NCBI GenBank assembly: GCA_000092065.1
Contig: CP000590.1
DNA length: 64,000 nt
Direction: 5' to 3' (one strand)
DNA from: Ostreococcus lucimarinus
Taxonomy: Eukaryota
This document shows positions 43,317-58,995 of the stretch, piece by piece. Made by a program: the position numbers and the translations under genes. The first letter of the stretch is position 1. Every line of letters starts with the position of its first letter. Below the pieces are notes generated by a model that worked only from the letters and a program-made list of their open reading frames with translations, searched no databases and had not been told where the DNA came from.

Positions 43317-44708
43317 CTACGTCGCCACACTAGCGCCTACGACGTCCATGAGCGCGATATCAAATCCGCGCTTTAAACCCGCGAGCAAATCTTCCTTCGT
43401 TTCTAACCCCACGGACAGACGCAACAGACCACCCGGCACGTGCGGCTCCTTTTCGCCCGGCGCGCACTCGACCGAATACCTGTGTTCGATGAGCGACTCG
43501 AAACCGCCGAGCGACGTGGCGCACGTCCAATAGTCGCAACTAACGGCCATAGTTTTACAAAACTTGACGACTCGCGACAAGTTTGATCCAGTGTGTTCGG
43601 GATAAAGATGCGGAAGGAAGTCAAAGAATACGAGCGAAAGCATGCCGCCGTACACGCCGTTTGGACACATGCGATTTACGATGTCGTAATGCGCGTTCTT
43701 CGACTCCACCGTTGTATCGGTTTGAAGCCCCGGGTATAGAACGATAGCGCCGTGAGGAATTCGACTGCGCAAGTACTGTTCGAACTCGTGCGCGATCCAC
43801 ATTGCGCTTTCGCTTTGTCTGCGCACGCGCAGCTCTAGCGTACGCATGCCTCGCGAGAGCAAGTACGCGTCCATCGACCCCATCGTCGCCCCGCCGAGCT
43901 TACGCTCATGCAAGATCCGCTGCCATCGATCATCGCATTCGCGCGTCACCAAAGCTCCCGCGACGACGTCCCCGTGTCCGTTCAAATATTTGGTCGCAGA
44001 GTGCATCACGACGTCGACGCCGAACGACAACGGCTTGGTACAAATCGGCGTCAATACCGTCGAATCCACACACACGCACCCCGCATCGCACGCCCTCGCC
44101 ACGGCCACGACCTGTTCTAAATCCATCACGTCCCACGTGGGATTCGCCGGGGATTCCACCCACACCAACGCCGCTTTTCGCCCTCTCGCCGCCTCTTCCT
44201 CCAACGCGCGCTTCAACGACCGTCCCGCGTGATGCGCCGTCCCCTTCGCGTCCTCGTCTCGCCTCGCCAGCGTGTGTCCATCGACGTCACATATCACATA
44301 CGGCACATCGGGGTCGTATTCCACGACCTCCACGCCTCGCGCGGCGCACCACTCTCGAATTCGCGCGCGCACCGCGAAGTACCCGCGGCTCGGCGAGCAC
44401 GCGAACGAACTCGCGTCCGACGTCCCGCGCACCGCGCCCTCGAGCACGGCGTTCACGGCCGCCATGCCGGACGAGAACAAAGCGCAATCGCTCCCGCGCT
44501 CGAGATCGCGCAGCGTGCGCTCGCACGCGCGCACGGATGGATTATCCGGCCGAGCGTAGCACAGCGTTCGGTCGCGAAAACGCGGAAGTTCGTGCGCGTC
44601 GTCGCGCGCGTACGTCGTCGATGGGTATATGGGCTGGATGACCGAACGCGTGGGGTCGTCGGCGGCGTCGGCGGCGCCGCGGACGAGCAAGGTGCCGTGG
44701 TCGAGCAT
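43317..44708 (-). CDS. Cys/Met-metabolism PLP-dependent enzyme (cystathionine beta-lyase / gamma-synthase family)
   Basis: ATG at 44708. IYPSTTYA...SATKYLNGHGDVVAG (the PLP lysine motif) ...LGG, with full-length similarity to the CGS/CBL/CGL family. Confidence 0.7.
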   Translation of the reverse strand: MLDHGTLLVRGAADAADDPTRSVIQPIYPSTTYARDDAHELPRFRDRTLCYARPDNPSVRACERTLRDLERGSDCALFSSGMAAVNAVLEGAVRGTSDASSFACSPSRGYFAVRARIREWCAARGVEVVEYDPDVPYVICDVDGHTLARRDEDAKGTAHHAGRSLKRALEEEAARGRKAALVWVESPANPTWDVMDLEQVVAVARACDAGCVCVDSTVLTPICTKPLSFGVDVVMHSATKYLNGHGDVVAGALVTRECDDRWQRILHERKLGGATMGSMDAYLLSRGMRTLELRVRRQSESAMWIAHEFEQYLRSRIPHGAIVLYPGLQTDTTVESKNAHYDIVNRMCPNGVYGGMLSLVFFDFLPHLYPEHTGSNLSRVVKFCKTMAVSCDYWTCATSLGGFESLIEHRYSVECAPGEKEPHVPGGLLRLSVGLETKEDLLAGLKRGFDIALMDVVGASVAT

Positions 44709-44771
44709 CGCGAACGCGTCTGCGAGTGCGGCGACGGCGCGACGAAACTAAATGAATGAGCTACAACGTCG

Positions 44772-45918
44772 TCAGCGGGCGAGCGATAAGGATGCTAAAT
44801 GAACGTCTACGTCGACGCTCGCGACGTCGCGATCGATGGCGGGCGCGGCGGGTGAACTCGATTTGAATCCACGGTTCGCCGCGCGTAATGCGGCGGCGAC
44901 GTCGGGACGCGACAGATTCGGAGGCGTGAACGGCGATGTTCGGAACTGCACCGTCGGTTCCGCGGACTCGTCCACGTTTACCGTCAATCCACACGCTTTT
45001 ACGTAAGTCTCGGCGTCGCTGGCGTAGTCGAGGCGCAGGACGCGCGCCAACTCGTCGAGCTTCATCGGCGTCGAGTTCAGCGCGCAGTTGAGCGATCGCA
45101 GCGCATCGATGCGCGCGACGGCGAAGTGCCGCTCGAGGCAGCACGCGTGTTCGTACGACGCCTCGTCGACGATGGCGAAAAAACGACGCCAGTTTCCCGT
45201 CGCGAAGGCTGCTCGACACGTCATCGCGAATCTCGCGTCCTTCGTCGCCAACGTCCGTACTCCGACGCGTCTCAAGTCCCCCGCCAACTCGCTCGTCCCG
45301 TCGCGCAGGCGCACGCACAGCAGCATCGACACAAACCTTCCAACGCGTTCGACGTGCAGGTCGTCGTCGAATCCCAACTCCGCGTACGCGCTCAGCAACA
45401 TTCCAAACGTCTTTCCGAGCTGTCGCTCGCGCAGCGCCGCCGCGCCGAAATCGTCGTCGCTCGCGTCCGCCTCGCGCTCCGCCTCGCTCGTCACCGCGCG
45501 CACGATCATGCGCTCGAGCAACGCGCAGCACCTTCCGCACGCCACCGGATCGTCCGCGAACAACCCTTGCATCGCTAAATCTTGTCGCACCGCGCGCAGT
45601 CGGTCCTCGCAGAACGCGTGCGCGCTCGCGAGCGCGTTCGCCGACGCCGACGCCGACGCGCGCGTCGACGCGCGACGCGCGTCGTCGAGCGCGCGGAATA
45701 AATGGTCCACCGTGCGTTCGCACGCGTCCAGCGTTCGCACGCGCGCCGCGTCCTCCGTTCCCGCGACGACGGTGCGCGCGAACCGTTTCACCATCCTCGA
45801 CGCGTCGGCGTCGCCCGCGCCGTTCGCGCCGCCGCGCTCGAGCGCGTGCGCGTCGCCGCGCGTCGCGCGCGCGCGCGCCTCGGCGTCGGGGCACATCGCC
45901 TCGCACGCGCCGCGCATG
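44772..45918 (-). CDS. SAC3/GANP-family (PCI-like) protein
   Basis: ATG at 45918 (MRGACEAMCPDAEAR...). The middle ...FCEDRLRAVRQDLAMQGLFADD...ELGFDDDLH...TGNWRRFFAIV...HFAVARIDALRSLN resembles the SAC3/GANP helical domain. The upstream part of the track ORF is antisense to proA and spurious. Confidence 0.4.
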
Positions 45919-45989
45919 GCGACGCGCGACGCGCGCCGCCGGACACTGGCGCGCGCGTCGTCGCAACCCCAACGACACTTCCCGTCGTC

Positions 45990-47378
45990 ATGCCCGACGA
46001 TCCCGCCACGCTGGCCCGCAAAGCGCGCGATGCGAGTCGTAAACTGCAACAGCTCCCCTCGCGCGAGCGCGCCGCGCTGCTGCGCGCCGTCGCGAACGCG
46101 CTCGAACGTCGCGAGAGCGAAATCCAAGCCGCGAACGACGAAGATTTGCGACGCGCTGAATCGTCCGATGACGTCGAAGAAGCGCTGCTGCAGCGGTTGA
46201 AACTGAAACCTGGAAAGGTGAAGCAGCTGGCGGACGGCGCGCGGGCGATCGCGAACATGGAAGAGCCGATCGGGAAGCCGCTGAGCGCGATGGAGTTGGC
46301 GAAGGGTTTGACGCTGACGAAGGTGACGGCGCCGTTGGGGGTGCTTTTGATCATATTTGAAAGCCGGCCGGACGCGCTGCCGCAGATCGCGTCGTTGGCG
46401 CTGCGGACGGGGAATGGACTGCTGCTCAAGGGTGGGAAGGAAGCGGCGAGCTCGAACGCGAAACTGCGGGAGGTCATCGTGGACGAATTTGAGGCGTTCG
46501 GCGTACCGAAGGAATGCGTGTGCCTGATCGAGGGTCGAGAAGCGGTGGCAGATCTGCTGAAGCTGGATGACGTGATCGATTTGGTGATTCCGCGCGGTTC
46601 GAACTCGTTGGTGACGTACATTCAGAATAATACGAAGATTCCCGTGCTCGGGCACGCGGACGGCGTGGTGCACGTGTACGTCGACAAGGACGCGAATGTT
46701 GACATGGCGGCGAAGTGTGCGATAGATTCGAAGATTGATTATCCCGCGGCGTGTAACGCGTTGGAGACTTTGCTCATTCACGACGATCTTGTCGCGAATG
46801 GAGGCGCGGCGGAACTCATGACGGCGTTGCGCGCGGCGGGCGTCGAACTCTTTGGCGGACCGCGCGGGACAAAGGAACTCAACCTACCAGCGGCACCGGC
46901 GCTCCGACACGAATACGGTGGCATGCAATGCTCGGTGGAACTCGTGAGCTCTATGGATAACGCCATCGATTACATCCACGCCAACGGTTCGGCGCATACT
47001 GATTGCATCATCACGTCGAACCAAAAGACGGCGGATGAATTCATCGCTCGCGTCGACAGTGCGTGCGTGTTTCATAACGCCTCCACGCGCTTCAGCGATG
47101 GATTTAGATTTGGTCTCGGCGCTGAGGTTGGTATATCTACTTCGCGAATCCATGCCCGCGGGCCCGTGGGCGTCGAAGGATTGTTGACGACGCGCTGCTT
47201 GTTGCGAGGCAAGGGGCAAATTTGCAACAAGGACAAGGGCGTGGAGTTCACGCACAAGCGACTACCGCTTCCCAAGCGCGAAGGGTTGTTTAAACCCGGT
47301 GTATTGCAACAAGTTGCGTCGAGCGTGGCGCTCTTGGCGAATAGCATCGTCGTGTTCCGAGCGATGATGAAGAAATGA
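45990..47378 (+). CDS. proA: Gamma-glutamyl phosphate reductase (glutamate-5-semialdehyde dehydrogenase, ProA), stand-alone
   Basis: ATG at 45990 (MPDDPATLARKARDASRKLQQL...). It is an ALDH-superfamily ProA: PLGVLLIIFESRPDALPQIASLALRTGNGLLLKGGKEA...HADGVVHVYVD...CNALETLLIH...HTDCIITS...NASTRFSDGFRFGLGAEVGIST. I found no fused glutamate-5-kinase domain. Confidence 0.75.
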   Translation: MPDDPATLARKARDASRKLQQLPSRERAALLRAVANALERRESEIQAANDEDLRRAESSDDVEEALLQRLKLKPGKVKQLADGARAIANMEEPIGKPLSAMELAKGLTLTKVTAPLGVLLIIFESRPDALPQIASLALRTGNGLLLKGGKEAASSNAKLREVIVDEFEAFGVPKECVCLIEGREAVADLLKLDDVIDLVIPRGSNSLVTYIQNNTKIPVLGHADGVVHVYVDKDANVDMAAKCAIDSKIDYPAACNALETLLIHDDLVANGGAAELMTALRAAGVELFGGPRGTKELNLPAAPALRHEYGGMQCSVELVSSMDNAIDYIHANGSAHTDCIITSNQKTADEFIARVDSACVFHNASTRFSDGFRFGLGAEVGISTSRIHARGPVGVEGLLTTRCLLRGKGQICNKDKGVEFTHKRLPLPKREGLFKPGVLQQVASSVALLANSIVVFRAMMKK

Positions 47379-47425
47379 ATCACGCATTAGACGAGTTGAC
47401 GCCGCAATTTTTCTGAACACGACGG

Positions 47426-47430
47426 TGTAA
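47426..47430 (+). promoter_or_regulatory. Putative TGTAA poly(A) signal of proA
   Basis: TGTAA is about 45 nt after the stop, in an AT-richer 3' region. Confidence 0.35.
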
Positions 47431-47489
47431 AAGCTTTCAAAAATCATTTTGATAACAAAGTACAAACAACGTAAAGTAGCGCACCTAAG

Positions 47490-48974
47490 TTAAATCGTCT
47501 CCAATGCGGCGATACCCTCAAGATGTTTGTAGTTCTTCTTCAGGATGTCGCGCGAATCGGAGATTCTAAAATCGTATCCGTGTTTCTGGGCCCATTCCTG
47601 CATGATGGGACGAAGCTTGTGAAGCTTGTAACGCGGCATGGTGGGGAATAAGTGGTGAATGAGCTGCGTGTCCATACCACCCCACAACCAACGCTCGAGT
47701 GGATTCTTCACGTCCGCTTCGCGAGTGCTTCTAAACTGAATATCGACGAAGGAACCGTCTTCATACATGATTTCCTCGCTCTGGTGCGTAGCGGTGACGA
47801 GAGAGCCTACCAAAAACCCACCGATGAGCATGGAGCCGATGGCGACACCCAAAGGAAGCGTGCCGAACAACCACGCGTAGTGGCCGACGAGCAAAGCGAG
47901 CTCAGTCTTATCCTTGCGCGCCCACGCACTCGCGACGCTGTGTCGGCGCCAGAGCACGTACGTCATCGCGTAGAGCGGATAGCCGTAGATGTGCTGGTAC
48001 TTGCGCAACCAGCTATCCGGGCGCCCACTGGTCTCCGGCGGCGACAAGTAATACAGAGGCTCGAGTTTGATGTCGCCGTCCTTACCGTCGACGTTCGTGA
48101 ACGAGTGGTGCATGTTGTGCTTGTGCGACCACCATTCGGCGGAAAACCCATTCGTCAACGCGCCAAAGCAGCGCATCATCGAGCACCACTTCCCGCGGCC
48201 GTGAACGTAGTCGTGCGCGAGCCATCCGGCTTGTTGCATCCCTATCCCGATCGAGATCGCGGCTAAGATCGGGTGCGTCGCCGCGATGGCTTGTCCGACG
48301 ACGTAGCATCCCAAAACTTGCGCCAACACCGAGAGTTCGGAGAGCGCGTTGCGTTTAAACCAGCCCTCCGCCTCCAACTTCCCTCGCAACTCCCCGAACT
48401 CGGCGTTCGCCGTCGTCAGCCTTTGCGTTTCGTACTCTTCCGTATCATACGGTGCATCGCACTTCGGCAACGCGCGCAAGCGTTTCAACGCCTCGTCGCT
48501 CCCGTTCGGCCCGTACGAGTGCAGCGCGTAAAACACATCCGTCGCGTCTTGTCCGTTCAACAACCGCACGAACCCCGCCCCACCGGGATGCGCCAGCGCC
48601 CACCCCGTCGCATCGTACCACTGTCCATCGACCTTCAGCTTCACTTCCTCCGTCCGTCGCCGGCGCCCGCTCTGCTTCTCGTTCGCTTCCGCCGCCTGTT
48701 CCAGCACCGCCGCGCTCGCGCCGAACGGGCTCAGGAACCCCCACGGCTTCTTCGCCTTCCCATCGTCGCCCGCCGCCGTCGCCGTCGCCGTCGCGTCGTC
48801 CGCGCTCTCGTGTCCCATCGCGTCCGAGATCGCGTCGATCCGCGTCGTCGTCGTCGTCGTCCTCGCGCGCGGTCGCCGTCGAATCGTCGCCGACGTCACG
48901 GCGACATCTTGTCGCGCGCGCGCGCGTCTGCGCGTCGTGAGCGCGCGCGCGTCGCACGTCGCGACGGCGGGCAT
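47490..48974 (-). CDS. Front-end (cytochrome b5-fused) fatty acid / sphingolipid desaturase
   Basis: N-terminal cytochrome b5 domain with HPGG (WALAHPGGAGFV). Histidine boxes HDYVH, HKHNMHH and QLIHHLFP (the Q-for-H third box typical of front-end Delta6/Delta8 desaturases). ATG at 48974 gives a presequence-like MPAVATCDARALTTRRR. The alternative ATG at 48818 (MGHESADD...) would start just before the b5 domain. Confidence 0.7.
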   Translation of the reverse strand: MPAVATCDARALTTRRRARARQDVAVTSATIRRRPRARTTTTTTRIDAISDAMGHESADDATATATAAGDDGKAKKPWGFLSPFGASAAVLEQAAEANEKQSGRRRRTEEVKLKVDGQWYDATGWALAHPGGAGFVRLLNGQDATDVFYALHSYGPNGSDEALKRLRALPKCDAPYDTEEYETQRLTTANAEFGELRGKLEAEGWFKRNALSELSVLAQVLGCYVVGQAIAATHPILAAISIGIGMQQAGWLAHDYVHGRGKWCSMMRCFGALTNGFSAEWWSHKHNMHHSFTNVDGKDGDIKLEPLYYLSPPETSGRPDSWLRKYQHIYGYPLYAMTYVLWRRHSVASAWARKDKTELALLVGHYAWLFGTLPLGVAIGSMLIGGFLVGSLVTATHQSEEIMYEDGSFVDIQFRSTREADVKNPLERWLWGGMDTQLIHHLFPTMPRYKLHKLRPIMQEWAQKHGYDFRISDSRDILKKNYKHLEGIAALETI

Positions 48975-49310
48975 GCTTTCCGCGTCGCGTCGCGCGTCGC
49001 GTCGTCCGTCGCTCGGCCGCGCGCGCGCGTGTGCGGCGCGCGCGCGCGCGCCGTATCCTCCGACGCGCGAAGATAAGACGTCGATTCGTATGCGTTTAAA
49101 CATCATTAAATGCGAAAGATCGCGCCGACGTCGATTGAATTCGCAGACGATAAATACTCGATTCCAAACCCTGGATGTAACACGGAACAGACACACGACT
49201 CGACGGCGCGACGGCGCGACGGCGCAGTGCGCGCCGCGGCGCGGCGAACGACGCGCGCGCGCGGCCGAGCGCGCGTCGCGCCGCGATCGTCGACGCCGCG
49301 ATCGCCGACG

Positions 49311-49778
49311 ATGATTCGATTCGCGCTGTTATTCAGCAAACAAGCGAAGATTCGCCTGAGCAAGTACTACGTCCTGACGAACCAAAAGGAGCGGAAGAGG
49401 ATCGAGCGCGACGTCACGTCGCGAATCATACCGCGCGCGAACAAGCTGTGCAACGTCGTCGAGTACCGGGACGTGAAGCTGGTGTACAGGAAGTACGCGA
49501 GCCTGTACTTTTGTCTGGCGGTGGACCGAGGCGCGAACGAGCTCGCGACGCTGGAGATGATTCAACACTACGTCGAGATCTTGGACAAGTACTTCGGGAA
49601 CGTGTGCGAATTGGATTTAGTGTTCAACTTTCACAAGGCGCACTACGTGTTGGACGAGGTGTTCATCGCGGGGCATCTGCAGGAGACGTCGAAGAAGTTG
49701 ATCGCGCGGTTGGTGGGCGAGCACGACGCGCTCGTGGAACGCGTCAAATTGGGCGGCCCCGCGGCCGAGGACGCGTGA
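49311..49778 (+). CDS. AP4S1: AP-4 adaptor complex sigma subunit
   Basis: ATG at 49311. MIRFALLFSKQAKIRLSKYY...CNVVEYRDVKLVYRKYASLYFCLAV...EILDKYFGNVCELDLVFNFHKAHYVLDEV aligns best with AP-4 sigma ([20 protein letters not shown]...[25 protein letters not shown]...EVLDEYF...ELDIMFNLDKVHIILDEM). The track ORF starts 201 nt earlier in low complexity. Confidence 0.75.
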   Translation: MIRFALLFSKQAKIRLSKYYVLTNQKERKRIERDVTSRIIPRANKLCNVVEYRDVKLVYRKYASLYFCLAVDRGANELATLEMIQHYVEILDKYFGNVCELDLVFNFHKAHYVLDEVFIAGHLQETSKKLIARLVGEHDALVERVKLGGPAAEDA

Positions 49779-49965
49779 TTGGCGAGCGCGCAATTCGCGC
49801 GCGCGCGCGCGCGTTTTTTTTCGCGACGCTCGCGCGCGGTGTATTTTCCTAGGTTAGCGATGCGAGCAGGCCAGGGCGCGTTCGTTCGCGCGCGCTCGGC
49901 GGCTCTGGCGGTTGTAGCGTAGCAAAAGCTTCTGATCGTCATTCGCACGCGCGCGACGCGATCCG

Positions 49966-50774
<809 letters not shown>

Positions 50775-50778
50775 GACA

Positions 50779-52113
50779 CTACACAGAGAGCGTACCTTTG
50801 CTCGACGCCACGGAGCCCGCGCGTCGCGGATCAATCGCCGCGCACTGTCGCAAGCACTTACCGAAAGCCTTCGCCGCGGCTGTGGCAACTTCGGCTTCGT
50901 CCGCGCCGCGCGCGTGCTCGACCAAGTGCACCGTCATTTGCCCGTTGAACGTCAAACTCATGAACATGTGCTCGACCATCTCCACGCTGAGGTCGCCCAC
51001 TTTGTCGCTCTCGAGCTCGAGTCCGTACCCCAAGTACGGGCGATTGCTAAGATCCATGACGCACTCCACCGTGGCCTCACCCTCGGTGGACATCGCGCTC
51101 CCCATGCGATTACACCCTTTCTTAGTCCCCAGCGCCTTGTTCAGCGCTTGGCCGACGGCGATGGACACGTCTTCCGCCGTGTGGTGGTCGTCTATCCACA
51201 AGTCTCCCGTGGCGGCGATGTTCAGCGCCACCCCGGCTTCGCGTTGAATCGCGGTGAACAATCCATCGAGGGCGACGATACCGGTGCTGATCTTCGATCC
51301 CTCGACGTCATCGCGACTGGCGTCTAAATCCAGCTTCACGTCGATGGACGTCTCCTTCGTCGAGCGTTGAATCGCGCTTCGCCGCGTCTCCTCGCTCGCG
51401 GCGGCGCCCGCGTACACGTCGATCCCTTCCGCCGCGTCCATCGCCGCGCGAACCCCCCGCGCGAACGCCTTGAACGTCGATTCGACGATATGATGCGCGT
51501 TATCCCCGCGCTCTTTCACCAACCGCACGCTCACCCCCGCTTCCTCCGCTAACGCTCGCCAAAACGTCTCCGTGAGCGCCGTCGGATACGTCCCGATGCT
51601 CGCGCGTCCCGCCGTCCCCGGCTTCCCATACGGCGCCAGCGCGAACGTCTCCAGCCCTCGCTCGCCGTACAGCTCGATCCCACACGTCGCGTACGCCTCG
51701 TCCAACGGCGCCGCGAACCGCGCCTTCGCCCGCTCCCCGGCGCCTCTCCCGTCTCCCAGCGTCTCTCGCAGCGCCGCGCCCAGCGCCGCGCCCGCGCACC
51801 GAAACGCCTCCTCGTCGCTCACCCCTCCCGCGTCGCGCGCCTCCTCGCACGTCACCCCGCGTCGCGTCAGCACGCAGTGCACGCCCAACTGCGCGTGCGC
51901 GGTGAGCTGATCGATCATGTGATCCAGGAACGGCGCGCCCGTCGCGATCGTCCCGCGCGCGCCGTTCGCATCGATCACCGCGACGCCCTGGACGTCCCCG
52001 CACGCGCGCTCCGCGCGTCCGACCGCCCACGGCGACGTCGCGCGCGTTCGCGCGCGTCGTCTCCCGGCGTCGCGGCGTCGCGGCGCGCACGGCGCGAGGC
52101 GCAGCGTCGCCAT
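50779..52113 (-). CDS. HISN5: Imidazoleglycerol-phosphate dehydratase, with two tandem IGPD domains in one chain and a presequence
   Basis: ATG at 52113 (MATLRLAPCAPRRRDAGRRRARTRATSPWAV...). Copy 1 has ...GAPFLDHMIDQLTAHAQLG...GDGRGAGERAKARFAAPLDEAYATCGIELYGERG...DNAHHIVESTFKAFARGVRAA. Copy 2 has RSTKETSIDVKLDLD...GIVALDGLFTAIQ...GDLWIDDHHTAEDVSIAVGQALNKALG...MDLSNRPYLGYGLE...VEMVEHMFMSL...KAFGKCLRQCAAIDPRRAGSVASSKGTLSV. Both align along their full length with plant IGPD (GRIGEVKRVTKET...FLDHML...IDDHHTNED...DLSGRPYLGY...VEHFF...NSHHIIEATFKAF...DPRRGGTIPSSKG). Confidence 0.7.
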   Translation of the reverse strand: MATLRLAPCAPRRRDAGRRRARTRATSPWAVGRAERACGDVQGVAVIDANGARGTIATGAPFLDHMIDQLTAHAQLGVHCVLTRRGVTCEEARDAGGVSDEEAFRCAGAALGAALRETLGDGRGAGERAKARFAAPLDEAYATCGIELYGERGLETFALAPYGKPGTAGRASIGTYPTALTETFWRALAEEAGVSVRLVKERGDNAHHIVESTFKAFARGVRAAMDAAEGIDVYAGAAASEETRRSAIQRSTKETSIDVKLDLDASRDDVEGSKISTGIVALDGLFTAIQREAGVALNIAATGDLWIDDHHTAEDVSIAVGQALNKALGTKKGCNRMGSAMSTEGEATVECVMDLSNRPYLGYGLELESDKVGDLSVEMVEHMFMSLTFNGQMTVHLVEHARGADEAEVATAAAKAFGKCLRQCAAIDPRRAGSVASSKGTLSV

Positions 52114-52137
52114 TCGTCGACGCGTCGCTCTTTGCCG

Positions 52138-52806
52138 ATGCACGCGGGGACGCCCTCGGCCGAGGGCGCGCACGCGCTGCTGTGCGTCGCGCTCGCGTGC
52201 GTGATGAGCGCGCGAACGTTTCGCGACGCGCTCGCGCGCGACGCGCGCGACGCGACGCCGCGGGCGCGAGAGGCGCGCGCGTGGGTCGCGGGAGGGGTGC
52301 TGTGTGTGTTCACAGTGAGCTATTGGATTTTGGCGCGCGGAGAAGGCGCCGCGGCGAAAGCGCGGGCGCCGGGAACGGCGGCGCACGTCGCGTGGACGCT
52401 CGCGCCGTCGAACGCGATGTATGTGATCGCGATGGCGCGACGAGGGGGGATGACGCGGCGAGGGACGGCGTACATGGTGAGCGGCGCGTGCGCGAGCGCC
52501 GTCGGCGCGATTACGGGACGGCGAAGCGCGGGACGAATGGCGGCGCTGTGCGCGGGATTCGCGACGACGAGGACGGGAGAGGGAGATTGGCGCGCGTTCG
52601 GGATTGCGATGACGTGGTACGTCGCGCTGAGGTTGTGCGTGGAGGATGGGGAGGAGGTGTATTTTGTGAACTGGGCGGGGACGATTTTGTGCGAGACGGC
52701 GGCGCTCGCCATGGTCAAGTTCGGCAAGTTCGGCAAGTTCGGCGGCGCGGGGAAGCGCGCGGGCGGTCTCGCTTCGGGTGGAGTCGAGACGAAGAAGGCG
52801 CGGTAG
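52138..52806 (+). CDS. Small multi-pass membrane protein, family not recognised
   Basis: ATG at 52138 (MHAGTPSAEGAHALLCVALACVMS...). It has about 4-5 hydrophobic segments and a C-terminal FGKFGKFGG tail. It starts only 25 bp from the divergent IGPD ATG (52113). Confidence 0.4.
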   Translation: MHAGTPSAEGAHALLCVALACVMSARTFRDALARDARDATPRAREARAWVAGGVLCVFTVSYWILARGEGAAAKARAPGTAAHVAWTLAPSNAMYVIAMARRGGMTRRGTAYMVSGACASAVGAITGRRSAGRMAALCAGFATTRTGEGDWRAFGIAMTWYVALRLCVEDGEEVYFVNWAGTILCETAALAMVKFGKFGKFGGAGKRAGGLASGGVETKKAR

Positions 52807-52858
52807 TTAGCGATCGTGTTTTATTCAATGTCATTAAATGTAGCGCGTCGTGACGGCA

Positions 52859-54676
52859 TCATTGCGGTCGACTGTCGATTTCTTTGTAGAGCGCGTTGAG
52901 CAGAGCCACTCCATAGCCAGAACCTAAACCGTCTTTAAAGTTACCAGGACCAGCCATGTCGAGGTGAATCCAAGCCGTGTCATCGCGAGCGACCCAGTCT
53001 GGGTGTAAGTGATTGGCGATGAATTGACCGGCGCAGCTCGATTGCGCGTTGGCGCGGTCGGCGACGGAGTTTTTCATGTCGGCGACTTTGGAACTGAACT
53101 CACTCTTGAACATTTCCGGAGCGTAGGGCAGGGCGTGCGCCAGATCTCCGGTGATTCTGCCCAATCGCACGATGGTGTGCTCCATGTCTTCGCTATCGGT
53201 CACAAGTCCGGCGTGTTTACGCCCGGTGGCGATCATTTGCGCTCCGGTGAGCGTGGCCATGTCGACGATGATGCGCGGCTTGCACGCGGCGTTCGCGGGA
53301 TCGGAGCAATACGCGACGCCGTCCGCGAGCACGAGGCGCCCTTCGGCGTCGGTGTTGTTGATTTCCACTGTCTTTCCGCTCTTGCCGACGAGAATGTCAT
53401 CCGGGCGAATCGCGCCCGAGCCAATTGCGTTTTCGGCGATGCACAGCACGAGGTCGAGTGGCGTCTTGAAATTCGATTCGGCGTCCTCGCGAGCGATGGA
53501 CTCAAACGCGCACAGCATACCCGCGGCACCGCCCATGTCCGTCTTCATACCGCACATGCCGTCTTTAGATTTCAGCGAAAGCCCACCGGTGTCGAACGTG
53601 ATACCCTTGCCCACGAACGCGATGGACGGCGCGTCCGGGTCGACGCAACCTTTCGGCGTAAATCGCAAGTGCACGAGCGCGGGATCACGACCGTCGCGAC
53701 TCGAAGCGCTTCCGACGCCCGCCAGACATCCGTAGCCCTCCTCGACGAGTTGCGCGTAACGTTTAATCTCGACAACCTTAACGCTCGCGCCGAGCTCGCC
53801 CGCGACGACCTTCGCCTCGTCCACAAACGCGTCCGGCGACAGCTCGTTTGGCGCCATGTCGACGAGCGCCTGGCATCTGCGCACCGCCTTTGGCAACGAC
53901 CGCGTCTCCGCCCCGTTCCAAATCTCCCCTCCGCACACGACGCCCACGTACACTTCCCCGTCCACAACCGCGTCCGCCGCTCGAAACTTATTCGTATACG
54001 GCGCACTAATCCTCGCCAACGCCGCCAACGCCCCGACGCGGTGCGCCTCCTCGTCCACCGCCGCGAGCACCACCGCTCTTCTCTTCTTCCGATCCCCTAT
54101 CGCCGCTTTCGCCGCCGCCGTCATCGCGTGCGCGGCGATCGGCGAATTATGTCTCGACATCTTCGATTTCTCCGGCATCACGCACACGACGAGCTCCAAC
54201 AGTCCCTCGTCGTCCTCGCTCGCCGTCTCGAGCACCGTGCTCCGCGTCGCGTTCGCGTCGAGGCTCTCGACCAATCGCTCGAACGTCCGCGCTGCGCGCT
54301 CGTTCGTCCCGAACGCGCGCCGCGCGAACGCGCCGTTCTCGAGCAGCGCATCTTTCGCGCCGACGACGACCCATTTCGCGTCGTTCGTGCGCCGCGCGGC
54401 GTCGCAATCGTCGTTCGTTTCGATCGTTTTCAGCGTCGACGCGCCGCGCCATCGGTCGTCGTGATGCGTCGTGGACATGCGCACGCGCGCGGAGGAGGCT
54501 CGACGCGAACGAACGCGGTGTGCGCGCGCGGTGTGCGCGCGGTGAGCGATTCGGGAGGGCGCGAAGGGCGCGCGGGCGCGCATGCGCCGTGGTGTGAGGC
54601 GGCGAGGGCGGCGCGCGCGGCGGCGTCGGCAACCGCCGCGAGCGCCGAGGAGAGCGAGTCGCGTGAGTTGAGTCAT
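52859..54676 (-). CDS. Leucyl aminopeptidase (M17 family), presequence-bearing
   Basis: ATG at 54676. The M17 catalytic region is VGKGITFDTGGLSLK...MKTDMGGAAG...NTDAEGRLVLADGVAYC (the NTDAEGRL signature)...LTGAQMIA. The N-terminus is R-rich. Confidence 0.75.
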   Translation of the reverse strand: MTQLTRLALLGARGGCRRRRARRPRRLTPRRMRARAPFAPSRIAHRAHTARAHRVRSRRASSARVRMSTTHHDDRWRGASTLKTIETNDDCDAARRTNDAKWVVVGAKDALLENGAFARRAFGTNERAARTFERLVESLDANATRSTVLETASEDDEGLLELVVCVMPEKSKMSRHNSPIAAHAMTAAAKAAIGDRKKRRAVVLAAVDEEAHRVGALAALARISAPYTNKFRAADAVVDGEVYVGVVCGGEIWNGAETRSLPKAVRRCQALVDMAPNELSPDAFVDEAKVVAGELGASVKVVEIKRYAQLVEEGYGCLAGVGSASSRDGRDPALVHLRFTPKGCVDPDAPSIAFVGKGITFDTGGLSLKSKDGMCGMKTDMGGAAGMLCAFESIAREDAESNFKTPLDLVLCIAENAIGSGAIRPDDILVGKSGKTVEINNTDAEGRLVLADGVAYCSDPANAACKPRIIVDMATLTGAQMIATGRKHAGLVTDSEDMEHTIVRLGRITGDLAHALPYAPEMFKSEFSSKVADMKNSVADRANAQSSCAGQFIANHLHPDWVARDDTAWIHLDMAGPGNFKDGLGSGYGVALLNALYKEIDSRPQ

Positions 54677-54716
54677 CGGGGATGAAATGAAAGCTACGCG
54701 CCGTGCGTCGCGAGCG

Positions 54717-55559
54717 CTAAGGAGAGTAATCGTCGATCGTGGTGGTGGTGTCGTCGGTGGAATCGGCGCGCTGGGGGTCGTCGGCGACGGCGTCTCGCGC
54801 TTCTTCGGCCGGCGCTTCGGCGGCGTCGAGGAGCACGGCGCCGCACTCGCCGACGCGCGAGGGGTCCACGGGGATGCCGTTTCCGACGACGTCGTCGCGC
54901 CAGCATCCGCTAAAATACGTCTCAGATGCGCGCGCGGCGTCGAGCTCGGGCTTCAGCGCGGCGTAGAGCGCGGCGTGATCGCCGAGCACGCGGCCCTTCT
55001 TATCGACGCGGACATCGTACTTTCGGCCGTGGGAACCCAGGCGCAGCGAGACGGTTTCGAGGTTGACGCGCTCGACCGTCGCCGTAGCTGGGTATATCAC
55101 CAAGTGCTTGGACGTATCTGAATCGTACGAAACGCAGTAACCATCCGACCAGCTGGCTTCGCTCGATGGGTTGTCGTCTTCCCAAAGTACGCTGACGAAG
55201 TACCCCACCCAACGACGCCCTTTTGGCTTGACGACGACGGGTTTCGTGTTCAGCCCGCCGACGTGTTCGCCGTACAGCGTGGAAACCCGCACCCCGTGTG
55301 GTGGGTGCGCGGTGGCACGCATGGATTCAGGCAACAGTACCCAACGTCGCAAGTCGTCGAGAACCGTTTCGAGTTCATCGCTCGAAATGGTTTCGACTTT
55401 GCGCTCTCGTCGCGAATTCTCAAGCGCCTTTTTCACCTCCAGACGACTCGACTTCTTCCTCGCCGTGCTTTCCCACGCAATCCGTTCTTGTTCCGCACGC
55501 GCTCTGGCATCGCTTCTGGCTTGGACGCGCTCCAGCTCTGCCAGCTGCTGCTTCATGCG

Positions 55560-55604
<45 letters not shown>

Positions 55605-56021
55605 TGCCAACTCTTTCTTGTTCGTCGTGTTCTGCAACGTGTTCTTCAACGCGATGACTTCCAACAGAGTCACGAACGGCGTCGACCAAAGTGGATCCGC
55701 GCGCGCTCTCGGGCCTGCGTCCGCCGCCACCTTTTCAGCTCGGCAAATCCGAGCGTCCAACGCCGAGACGTAGTACGCGCGACCCTTAGCGTCGTATCCG
55801 ATCGGCTCGCCGTGCACGCCGCGCTTACACATCTGAAGCTGTTCGACTTTATTTCGCCGTCGCGCCTTGTCAAACTCATCCGAGCACTGTTCCGCGACGT
55901 TAGAAAACGAGCGAGACTCGACCAAATCCTCGCACAACCGGTACAACACTTCTAATCGCGCCAGCGCGTCGATGTCGAAAAATCCCGCCTCATCGTCCAC
56001 GCCGTCGCCCAATATCTCACG

Positions 56022-56066
<45 letters not shown>

Positions 56067-56492
56067 CGTCTCGCCGTGTCCCAACGCGCTCGGCGCCGGC
56101 GCCCACACGCGCAAGAAAAAATCTAAAATCCACGCGTGCTCGCGCGGTTCGCACAGCGCGCGTTCCCACGCCTCCCCATCCTTCCTCGGCATCCACATCG
56201 CCTCGAACGTCTCACAAAAGCTCTGCAAGGCGTAAAACTTGTGTTCGCTTCGCAGCGCCACGACGCGTTCGCGCATCTCTTTCCCCATGTTTCGCGTCGA
56301 CGCCGTCGACGACCCTCGCGCGTCGCGTCCCTTCGCCTCCTTCGCCGTCCCACGCGCGCCGTTCCTCGCGCCGCGCGCGCCGCGTCCACCGCGCGCACCG
56401 CGCCCGCGTCCCGCACCGCGTCCATCGCGCGCGCCGCGCGCGTCCGGCGTCGCGTCCGTTTTCATCTTTTTCGTCGCCGGCGCGCGCGGCAT
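54717..56492 (-). CDS. Chromatin-associated protein with DDT/WHIM-like helical region and a C-terminal beta-barrel reader-like segment
   Basis: ATG at 56492. The N-terminus is basic G/R-rich. HKFYALQSFCETFEAMW...WILDFFLRVW...LEVLYRLCEDL is a DDT-like helical pattern, and WVGYFVSVLWEDDNPSSEASWSDGYCVSYDSDTSKHLVIYPATATVERVNLETV is a Tudor/Agenet/BAH-like barrel. Weak assignment. Confidence 0.35.
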
Positions 56493-57330: not shown

Positions 57331-58995
57331 TTAAAAACGTTGCCACTCGATTTCGCCGACGGCGACGGGGGGCGCGGTGTTTTCGACGTCGTCGCTGAAA
57401 TGCGCCGCGCCGATGCGAGCGCGCCACGGCGCGAATGCGCGTTTCACGCGCCACGTATCTGCGAGTTCCATTGCGGCGTATCGTCGTCGCTGCGCGAAGA
57501 CGAAGGAGCGCCACATCGCAAAGCAATTCGCGTCCAGATACTTGTCGCTGAACGTGATCGCTTGTGAATCGCGGTAAAACGTCGCGCGCGCGTTCAGTTG
57601 TGACGCGTGTTCCTTCATTGATCTCCAATGCGCGAATACGCGTGTTTTTAGTGACCTGTTCTCTCGTTTCGCTTGACTCGTCGCCGCTCGCCAGGCGTAA
57701 AACGCGCTCGCCGCGAGCGACAGGCGATGAAATTTTGCCGCACGCGCCAGCTCGGCTCGGTGCTCTTTCGCGGCCCAGACGACCGCACACCACCGCGCAA
57801 AGGCGCCGACCGTGACACGCGCGTCGTCGTAGCTTGAAGCGAATCGCATGCGCTCGCGCTCTCGTCTCTCGTCTCGCACTCGTCGACGCCAACGCGAAAA
57901 TTTTACCGCGACGACGGCACGTTCGGCGCGACGTTCGGCGTGAATGACTCTTACACGCCACACACGCGTGACCGACCGTTTGACGTAGCGCTGGCGAGCG
58001 AGACGTGCGGCATCGATCGCGCGTCGCTCAGATTTCCACGCCCGCGCGACCGCAGACCAAGTATCCAGCGCCGTCGACTCGAGTTTGATTCGTCGCCACA
58101 CGTCCGCGCTCTCGCGCGCAACGCGCGCTCTCGCGCGCGAACGCCACGCGTTAAACGCCGCGAGCATCGCTCGACGGTTTCGTCGCGTTTGAGTCTGCCT
58201 GAAGGCTTCGAGTCGTCTCGCCGCGTCGTCTCGCGCGATTCGCGCCCACGCGCGAGCGACCGCTCGGCCCGTGGTCGCGAGCTCGCGTCGAGCGCGCTTC
58301 GCCGCGAACGCGCGCAATCGCACACGTTTGCGCGCATTCGTGCGCCACGCGCCAATCGCCGCCAGAGCCATCTTGCGCGCGCGGCGGCCGGTGGAGAAAG
58401 CGCACAACGACTCGATTTCGCGTTCTCTCGCTCGCCGATACTTTTCCTTCACCGCCTCGCGTCTCCACGCCGCGAACGCGCGCTTAATGGCGTTCATTTC
58501 GCACAACGCTCGAGCGATGAGCTCGCTCTCGTCGTCGTCGAGCGTGGCGCCTTCCGAATCCGCTCCCGTCGGCGTCGCGACTCGCGCGCCGTCGCCCACC
58601 GTCGTCTCCAAATACGCCTCGTCGTCCACCGCCACCAGCGCCTCGATCGAGCTCATCTCGCGCGTCGTCGCCGATTCGCCCGCCCCCCTCGCCTCCCCCC
58701 GCGCCGCGCCGCGCTCCAACGCCGCCGCCTTTTCCTCCCACGTCGTCTCGACGTCCAGCCCGAGCGCGAACGCCATCGCCCTCGCGCGCCCTCGCGCCGC
58801 CGCGTCCGCCCCTCGCGCCCGCCTGACCTCCTCGTCCACCGCCGCGCACACGTCCCGCAGTCTCGGCTCGCGCGCGCGTCCGCTCGCGTCGCGCGCGCGT
58901 CGCACGCCGCGCGCGACGACGCGCTCGAGCCAAACGGCCTCGCCGTTCGCGTCCGCGTCCGCGTTCGCGTCGCTCGCGCGCGCGCGCGCCGCCAT
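57331..58995 (-). CDS. Sfi1-like centrin-binding repeat protein
   Basis: ATG at 58995. It has about 15 repeats of roughly 23-33 aa, each with a conserved Trp (AFAAWRREAVKEKYRRARE..., LAAIGAWRTNARKRVRLRAF..., AAFNAWRSRARARVARE..., FSRWRRRVRDE..., AFYAWRAATSQAK..., VFAHWRSMKEH...). This is the Sfi1 AX7LLX3F/LX2W(K/R) architecture. Confidence 0.5.
   Translation of the reverse strand: MAARARASDANADADANGEAVWLERVVARGVRRARDASGRAREPRLRDVCAAVDEEVRRARGADAAARGRARAMAFALGLDVETTWEEKAAALERGAARGEARGAGESATTREMSSIEALVAVDDEAYLETTVGDGARVATPTGADSEGATLDDDESELIARALCEMNAIKRAFAAWRREAVKEKYRRAREREIESLCAFSTGRRARKMALAAIGAWRTNARKRVRLRAFAAKRARRELATTGRAVARAWARIARDDAARRLEAFRQTQTRRNRRAMLAAFNAWRSRARARVARESADVWRRIKLESTALDTWSAVARAWKSERRAIDAARLARQRYVKRSVTRVWRVRVIHAERRAERAVVAVKFSRWRRRVRDERRERERMRFASSYDDARVTVGAFARWCAVVWAAKEHRAELARAAKFHRLSLAASAFYAWRAATSQAKRENRSLKTRVFAHWRSMKEHASQLNARATFYRDSQAITFSDKYLDANCFAMWRSFVFAQRRRYAAMELADTWRVKRAFAPWRARIGAAHFSDDVENTAPPVAVGEIEWQRF

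Follow-up and report, generated by a model that had tools for sequence, protein, structure and literature searches.

We analyzed a 64,000-nt stretch of the Ostreococcus lucimarinus contig CP000590.1 (hereafter, the window) and focused on a minus-strand gene for imidazoleglycerol-phosphate dehydratase (IGPD) at positions 50779-52113. Canonical IGPD assembles from 24 identical subunits into a 432-symmetric shell, and each of its di-Mn sites is built from three chains. The gene in the window instead joins two IGPD domains in one polypeptide, and each domain has lost the active-site residues that the other has kept. We estimate a probability of roughly 0.78 that it encodes a single-chain pseudo-heterodimeric IGPD, in which every chain would carry one live and one decayed di-Mn site.

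Both halves of the 444-aa product were recognized as IGPD. The Pfam family IGPD (PF00475) matched the protein over two separate stretches, scoring 235 bits (cut-off, 27), and was its sole Pfam domain. A phmmer search with Arabidopsis IGPD2 (At-IGPD2, whose numbering is marked At below) delimited domains at residues 47-226 and 242-443, and the C-terminal half aligned end to end with the At-IGPD2 structure (4mu0). No histidinol-phosphate phosphatase (HAD) domain was present, and NF003937 matched only through its IGPD part (positions 164-355). Two of the 13 NCBIfam HisB equivalog models scored above their cut-offs (NF002111, 253.5 against 231; NF002114, 215 against 189) and the others below, these scores being sums over two half-degenerate domains. 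The AlphaFold2 model (predicted local distance difference test, pLDDT, 90.5; predicted template-modeling score, pTM, 0.90) contained a complete beta-alpha set in both halves, each with the four-helix bundle between two four-stranded sheets that marks the IGPD fold. A canonical domain, however, has two (D/N)xHHxxE motifs and eight Mn ligands, whereas each domain here has one motif and four ligands, and it takes both the N and the C domain to make up the full ligand set. Likewise, equivalents of E21, D108, Q51, H55, K177, R99, R121 and C-loop S199/K201 are each present once per chain. A BLASTP comparison of the two halves (51418-52005 against 50782-51417, both on the minus strand) returned a single 25-residue match (E=0.002) that pairs alpha1 of the N domain (FLDHMIDQL) with alpha3 of the C domain (MVEHMFMSL); this surviving similarity reflects the ancient intradomain repeat rather than positional equivalence from the recent duplication.

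The N domain keeps H65, H207, H208 and E211, the equivalents of At-H47, H169, H170 and E173, and has no C loop. The C domain keeps H310, H311, E314 and H382 (At-H73, H74, E77 and H145) together with the C loop, which reads DPRRAGSVASSKG and includes S437 and K439. Where the first motif has decayed in the N domain, At-H73/H74/E77 were placed at G97/V98/E101 by hmmalign, whereas the helix register of the AlphaFold model (helix start at residue 100, against 309 in the C domain) favors E101/E102/R105; the first-motif positions are without histidine in either register. An initial annotation, made from the letters of the window, had described two back-to-back IGPD folds, and the profile and phmmer boundaries agree with it. 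The motifs it listed for the first copy (FLDHMIDQL, SDEEAFR, TETFW, no C-terminal loop) and for the second (DDHHTAED, VEHMF, the C loop, ALDGLF and a decayed second metal motif) are all present in the aligned translation, and its register for the decayed N-domain motif is the one that the model favors over that of hmmalign.

Structures of the canonical enzyme allowed us to assign a chain to each of these residues. In Acanthamoeba IGPD, whose ligand numbering equals the At numbering minus 7, Mn1 is bound by H67 of chain A' and by H40, H162 and E166 of chain A, and Mn2 by H66, E70 and H138 of chain A' and by H163 of chain A (PMC6029752). In At numbering, positions 47/169/170/173 thus come from chain A and 73/74/77/145 from chain A'. 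The metal assignments in Table 2 of Bisson et al. (PMC4509728) are identical, and the Medicago study also describes metals bound by residues from different subunits (PMC10978614). Beyond the metal ligands, K170 (At-K177), H48 (H55) and D101 (D108) belong to chain A, and R92 and R114 (At-R99 and R121) and the C-loop residues S191 and K193 (At-S199 and K201) to a third chain, C (PMC6029752). Bisson et al. likewise assign Q51, H55 and K177 to chain A and R99 to chain C, and report the C loop to be indispensable in Pyrococcus furiosus IGPD and the At E21Q mutant to be inactive (PMC4509728). All structurally assigned chain-A residues survive in the N domain only, and those of chain A' or C in the C domain only. 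The initial annotation had set out this ligand partition and had argued that copy 1 holds exactly the chain-A ligands, that copy 2 holds exactly those of the neighboring chain (A'), and that the reciprocal site is dead; the published assignments (PMC6029752, PMC4509728) and our aligned ligand table uphold all three statements, with all eight ligands lost at the reciprocal site. The split is wider than had been proposed and takes in the whole active site (Q51, H55, D108 and K177 on one side; E21, R99, R121 and the C loop on the other) rather than the metal ligands alone.

This division is a property of the family and not of the Ostreococcus gene alone. The best 120 database matches were all two-domain proteins, and 117 of them could be split into halves. 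At the eight ligand positions the N halves read H....HHE, apart from five N-terminally truncated sequences, and the C halves read.HHEH... in 117/117. Invariant only in the N halves were H47, M48, D50, Q51, H55, P106-A110 (including D108 and E109), N167, H169, H170, E173, F176, K177, R181 and R184. Invariant only in the C halves were R11, R17, T19-T22 (including E21), G66, D67, D71-D78 (including H73/H74/E77), R99, R121, H145, H159 and the loop D190...S199-S200-K201-G-T-L-S. When 1.84 billion cluster representatives were scanned exhaustively with HMMER, the N half serving as query, about 100 further clusters were added, and every complete tandem that we classified (226/226) had an N-type domain followed by a C-type domain with the same split. 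Neither a canonical+canonical tandem nor the reversed order occurred among these 226, and no unfused N-type or C-type genes or canonical+canonical intermediates were found among 381 sequences.

To quantify the partition, we considered the 50 canonical-invariant positions, those with a conservation of at least 85% among 44 canonical IGPDs. Sixteen were retained in N only, 17 in C only, 5 in both and 5 in neither, the remaining 7 being mixed, and retention in the two halves was negatively associated (Fisher p=7e-4). If each copy keeps 4/8 ligands, the exact complementary A/A' split has a chance probability of about 4e-4. With an identical split in 117/117 close relatives and in 226/226 tandems, chance can be excluded, in keeping with the remark of the initial annotation that the pattern is too tidy for random decay. 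Each domain type also has invariants foreign to canonical IGPD: K162, R164, R132, G124 and G88, where At-IGPD2 has Q162, A164, T132, L124 and L88, together with Q57 in the N type, and M100, N120, E141, M142, G180 and C186 in the C type. Several of these adjoin live-site residues, with K162/R164 ahead of motif 2 in the N domain and M100, N120 and E141/M142 beside R99, R121 and H145 in the C domain. Such flanking changes may be compensatory.

We propose that tandem duplication of an ancestral IGPD gene was followed by fusion of the copies. The N domain would act as chain A, and the C domain as chains A' and C, while also supplying E21. In the canonical particle, chains A and A' are related by the edge two-fold axis, each A:A' pair holding two reciprocal sites, as the initial annotation had assumed; an N:C contact across the resulting pseudo-two-fold would rebuild one complete catalytic site, and the reciprocal site would have lost its eight ligands together with Q51, H55, D108, K177 and E21. 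The third-chain role would also be filled by a C-type domain, since it is the C type alone that retains R99, R121 and the C loop. The inter-domain linker (about 15 residues here, and roughly 10-19 aa or more across the family) sits where the lost C loop of the N domain would be, and would replace a loop that would have served a dead site. In the simplest history, one site would have been inactivated in the fused dimer, after which residues serving only dead sites drifted.

The stoichiometry that we infer is one active site and two Mn per chain of about 410 residues. Of the subgroups of the octahedral group, only the tetrahedral one has order 12, and its cosets color the 24 positions of the shell so that the three-fold trimers are homotypic and the neighbors across the edge two-fold and four-fold axes are of the other type. 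Because this coloring gives homotypic trimers and N:C two-fold contacts, a 12-chain tetrahedral cage is the natural prediction. Such a pseudo-octahedral particle of 24 domains would consist of (N)3 and (C)3 trimers and would hold 12 live and 12 dead sites. A fuller scenario, in which this cage replaces the homo-24-mer with alternating live and dead sites, the tether is adaptive at oceanic Mn concentrations and the gene spread by transfer, is offered as a tentative proposal that we think more probably wrong than right as a whole. If true, it would represent a natural symmetry reduction by fusion with a division of labor at the level of individual sites.

Several observations weigh against the single-chain pseudo-heterodimer. 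One concerns At-E21, which is kept only in the domain with the A'/C roles and so clashes with the Fig. 2 legend of PMC4509728, where the label Glu21 is assigned to chain A. The topology suggests a resolution in which E21 acts from chain A', the source of H73/H74/E77/H145. The IGPD sheets are antiparallel in the order beta1-beta2-beta4-beta3 (PMC7284861; PMC6029752), and the model places E254, the At-E21 equivalent, in the turn from beta1 (residues 245-251) to beta2 (255-262), hence at the pole where alpha2 begins, adjoining H73/H74/E77. E21 is, moreover, paired with D108 by the internal pseudo-symmetry of the fold, and D108 is expressly a chain-A residue. The 12-chain particle, in addition, requires a canonical chain C without a three-fold relation to chain A, and the pairing of N with C, within or between chains, is itself a prediction. 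Half the number of active sites per unit mass would be a cost without demonstrated benefit. Finally, the genome may hold a canonical copy: no other O. lucimarinus protein named IGPD surfaced, but the genome was not searched for one.

Such a copy is central to one alternative, in which the tandem is a non-catalytic or neofunctionalized paralog (a regulator, a scaffold or an enzyme of another reaction) and a canonical IGPD elsewhere performs the histidine step. Neither domain alone has the canonical ligand set, all NCBIfam HisB equivalogs but NF002111 and NF002114 fall below cut-off, and Phaeodactylum tricornutum was reported with two IGPD ORFs (open reading frames; PMC3901274), all of which would fit a paralog. 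Yet all residues for one canonical site are invariant in 226 sequences from distant lineages, which is hard to explain without canonical chemistry, and this locus alone surfaced by name as an IGPD of O. lucimarinus. For Thalassiosira pseudonana, moreover, a single gene for each histidine-pathway enzyme was reported, IGPD included (PMC3901274). Its relatives T. oceanica and T. antarctica carry the tandem form; together with the published gene count, this suggests that the tandem is the working, and likely the sole, IGPD of T. pseudonana. We consider a paralog unlikely, and predict that the tandem protein is the working IGPD of these algae. An even less probable variant is that the second site was remodeled, its acidic replacements (E101/E102 in N, E408 in C) binding another metal or ligand in a regulatory or structural role. 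Position 170 of the C type is Asp or Glu in 108/117 close relatives, mamiellophyte N domains often read D/E-E-E at 73/74/77, and assembly of the canonical 24-mer depends on the metal at the inter-subunit interface (PMC10978614). Against this, the dead-site positions are hypervariable across the family (73/74/77/145 in the N type and 47/169/173 in the C type; RPxx, GTVS, SKT and others) and share no family-wide alternative ligand set. Since these positions vary freely and the new invariants lie beside the live site, the second site looks abandoned rather than repurposed. A further reading accepts the same architecture and adds that it was fixed by selection in low-Mn oceans, the tether pre-organizing the di-Mn site and making assembly less dependent on free Mn. 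The named hosts all belong to algal or phytoplankton lineages (their habitat was not checked), and canonical IGPD dissociates into trimers without Mn (PMC10978614; PMC7284861). The demand for Mn per active site is nevertheless the same while the protein cost per site is doubled, and the taxon list is biased by marine metagenomes, which leaves selection by Mn conceivable but doubtful.

The remaining explanation, that one ORF was read from a pair of neighboring ordinary IGPD genes or from an assembly segment present in duplicate, has in our view a negligible chance of being correct. The reference gene model, XP_001420174.1 (UniProt A4S3Y5, 'predicted protein', 220 aa, O. lucimarinus CCE9901; our P0124), is identical to residues 225-444 and thus spans 50779-51441 on the minus strand, that is, the C domain only, leaving the N domain and presequence (51442-52113) unannotated; alone, it would look like a ligand-deficient IGPD. 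Some metagenomic gene calls also hold one half only; the C-only entries include the O. lucimarinus model. The 1335 nt of the window ORF (445 codons including the stop), however, contain no stop or frameshift, the two halves share no more than about 18% identity and both depart from an ordinary IGPD, and the fusion recurs in independent genomes, metagenomes and complete transcripts. The annotated Bathycoccus prasinos protein K8F1L1 (409 aa) includes both halves. Two N-only calls were examined as possible unfused genes, and both were rejected. The DNA of the first (P0239), which lies on an ENA metagenome scaffold (L001) and belongs to a relative about 60% identical, shows a tandem gene broken by an in-frame TAA (L001:1686-1688) inside the C domain, between ...DLDGAAGK and SVSTGIQTLD...; this TAA could be a sequencing error, a pseudogene mutation or a polymorphism. 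The second (P0240), judged from sequence alone, looks like intron read-through.

The product of the window gene begins with MATLRLAPCAPRRRDAGRRRARTRAT. Position 52113, where the initial annotation had placed the start, is the first ATG, the frame staying open further upstream to a GTG at 52386, and a relative with 96% identity (P0130) has the same start (MATLRLAP...). The length given there, 445 aa, needs correction to 444 aa, the stop being the 445th codon. The protein is 100% identical to the cluster representative P0001. The AlphaFold model has no secondary structure ahead of residue 32, and from its composition the presequence is presumed to be an organelle-targeting peptide.

Turning to the origin of the tandem, we built neighbor-joining trees with Poisson distances from 47 N-type, 47 C-type and 44 canonical domains. 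Each of these two tandem domain types formed its own clade in 200/200 bootstraps, also when 19 role columns and the C loop were removed, and the N-N and C-C pairwise distances of the same proteins were correlated (r=0.57). Family-wide identity is about 18% between N and C domains, and 31% (N) and 35% (C) to canonical IGPDs. The two clades and the correlated distances show a single duplication, fusion and partition, followed by diversification of the fused gene. Looking for the same two-domain gene in other algae, as the initial annotation had suggested, yielded relatives within and well beyond the Mamiellophyceae, namely in prasinophytes, diatoms, dinoflagellates and pelagophytes. The named green carriers are Ostreococcus and Bathycoccus; the diatoms are Thalassiosira oceanica, T. 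antarctica, Ditylum, Odontella, Nitzschia, Pseudo-nitzschia, Cylindrotheca, Chaetoceros, Extubocellulus and Mediolabrus; the others are the dinoflagellates Effrenium and Yihiella and one pelagophyte. A search with the most divergent tandem (P0321) gave, among named matches, only additional diatoms. As judged from the sequences, this spread over algae of green, stramenopile and alveolate descent implies that the gene was transferred from lineage to lineage. Both halves are found together in MMETSP and Trinity ORFs flagged 'complete', which means that a single transcript carries the fusion in those species. Some long relatives have N-terminal extensions: P0255 (1206 aa), P0269 (1023 aa, Pelagophyceae KAJ1461357.1), P0257 (810 aa) and P0253 (672 aa). 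We rejected these as cases of extra fused domains, since the upstream parts matched a nucleoporin FG domain (one protein) or no Pfam family and most likely stem from merged gene models. The Phytophthora IGPD in Swiss-Prot, P28624, is presumably about 452 aa long, which may mean that oomycetes also have a tandem.

Full-text literature searches, including PMC7284861, PMC10978614 and PMC3901274, found no description of a two-domain IGPD, as the initial annotation had supposed, and no experimental data on one. These studies examined 535 IGPDs, with HHxxE in both halves of all (PMC7284861), built a similarity network of 12,710 sequences (PMC10978614) and covered diatom amino-acid pathways (PMC3901274). 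Tandem sequences are already public, annotated simply as IGPD. As far as we found, the tandem adds a new architecture to a well-known enzyme family, one that is robustly conserved and ecologically widespread. With canonical IGPD (At-IGPD2 4MU0, Cryptococcus 1RHY, Acanthamoeba 6FWH) it shares the Pfam family, the fold and the whole-chain catalytic residue set and, as far as sequence and model can tell, presumably the di-Mn dehydration chemistry and the 24-domain shell. A canonical chain of about 200 aa, however, has both (D/N)xHHxxE motifs and all eight ligands and assembles into a homo-24-mer that has 24 sites, whereas the tandem has one motif per domain, two domains per chain and one predicted site per chain. 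The bifunctional HisB (HisNB) of some bacteria, the only IGPD fusion treated in the reviews consulted, is also an IGPD-containing fusion, but it joins histidinol-phosphate phosphatase to a canonical IGPD, while the tandem joins IGPD to IGPD with complementary decay and lacks the phosphatase domain.

Closer in evolutionary logic is the herpesvirus dUTPase, a duplicated and fused fold whose motifs are distributed between the halves, yielding a monomer with one site. There, too, a shared-site enzyme was duplicated and fused and kept complementary motifs, but fold and chemistry are unrelated, and the tandem IGPD presumably still forms a large cage. Mutant hybrids of aspartate transcarbamoylase and ornithine decarboxylase, in which crippled subunits give one good and one doubly dead interface site, match the state predicted for the tandem; those are laboratory point mutants, whereas the tandem is natural, covalent and ancient. 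The tandem would break rules treated as universal for IGPD (one domain, two HHxxE motifs, a homo-24-mer, 24 sites) and would provide an unusually clean natural case of a shared-site homo-oligomer turned into a pseudo-hetero-oligomer by duplication and fusion. With about two thirds of the canonical-invariant positions partitioned, subfunctionalization and neutral-ratchet models become testable residue by residue. The split also maps independently the chain served by each conserved IGPD residue, and predicts that E21 comes from the chain of H73/H74/E77/H145. IGPD is a validated herbicide target, and a distinct form in diatoms, dinoflagellates, pelagophytes and prasinophytes could bear on selective algicides and on the effects of herbicide run-off on phytoplankton.

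Features of the tandem IGPD gene and its neighbors, in window coordinates
Feature	Position	Strand	Remark
Complete tandem IGPD coding sequence	50779..52113	-	444 aa, stop 50779-50781; PF00475 in two stretches
Arg/Ala-rich presequence, residues 1-30	52024..52113	-	outside IGPD alignment; pLDDT <50 at residues 1-10
N-type IGPD domain, residues 31-229, chain-A half-site only	51427..52023	-	
FLDHMIDQLTAH: H65 (At-H47, Mn1), Q69 (Q51), H73 (H55); chain-A phosphate site Q69/H73	51895..51930	-	invariant in N-type, lost in C-type
AGGVSDEEAFR: decayed first (D/N)xHHxxE motif, At-H73/H74/E77 lost	51799..51831	-	positions hypervariable among N-type
APLDEA: D138/E139 (At-D108/E109), chain-A proton-relay carboxylate	51694..51711	-	99% in N-type, lost in C-type; D101 of chain A in PMC6029752, D108 in PMC4509728
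TETFW: T183 replaces At-H145 (Mn2 ligand)	51559..51573	-	
NAHHIVESTFK: intact second metal motif, H207/H208/E211, and K215 (At-K177)	51469..51501	-	100% in 225 N-type domains
Met225, start codon of reference model XP_001420174.1 / A4S3Y5	51439..51441	-	P0124 identity
Inter-domain linker, residues 230-243, GIDVYAGAAASEET	51385..51426	-	coil linking helix 206-229 to strand 245-251
C-type IGPD domain, residues 244-444, chain-A' half-site and third-chain elements	50782..51384	-	4mu0 alignment E=5.6e-45
RSTKET: E254 (At-E21, proposed acid-base catalyst)	51349..51366 (E254 51352-51354)	-	98% of C-type, absent from N-type
LDGLFT: At-H47 replaced by G284 (Q51 by A288 and H55 by E292 just downstream)	51253..51270	-	
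DDHHTAED: intact first metal motif, H310/H311/E314	51169..51192	-	100% in 226 C-type domains
R336 (At-R99, 51106-51108) and R358 (At-R121, 51040-51042), phosphate-binding	51040..51108	-	invariant in C-type
VEHMF: H382 (At-H145, Mn2 ligand)	50962..50976	-	117/117 C halves
DEAEVAT: decayed second metal motif, At-H169/H170/E173 replaced by A407/E408/T411	50881..50901	-	
DPRRAGSVASSKGTLSV: C loop, S437/K439 (At-S199/K201)	50782..50832	-	invariant in C-type
Cys/Met pyridoxal-phosphate enzyme	43317-44708	-	
Aldehyde-dehydrogenase-like protein	45702-47378	+	
Cytochrome-b5 fatty-acid desaturase	47490-49196	-	
M17 aminopeptidase	52859-54676	-	
Two ORFs >550 aa	54717-56492 and 57331-58995	-	no Pfam match

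The neighboring genes (43317-56492) have no functional relation to histidine synthesis. The window, which is O. lucimarinus nuclear DNA, is gene-dense, with a GC content of about 64%. ORFs of up to 309 aa overlap the IGPD gene in other frames or on the other strand, for example at 51877-52806 (+), 50773-51327 (+) and 51500-52090 (-); long overlapping ORFs of this kind are expected, because the DNA is 64-70% GC.

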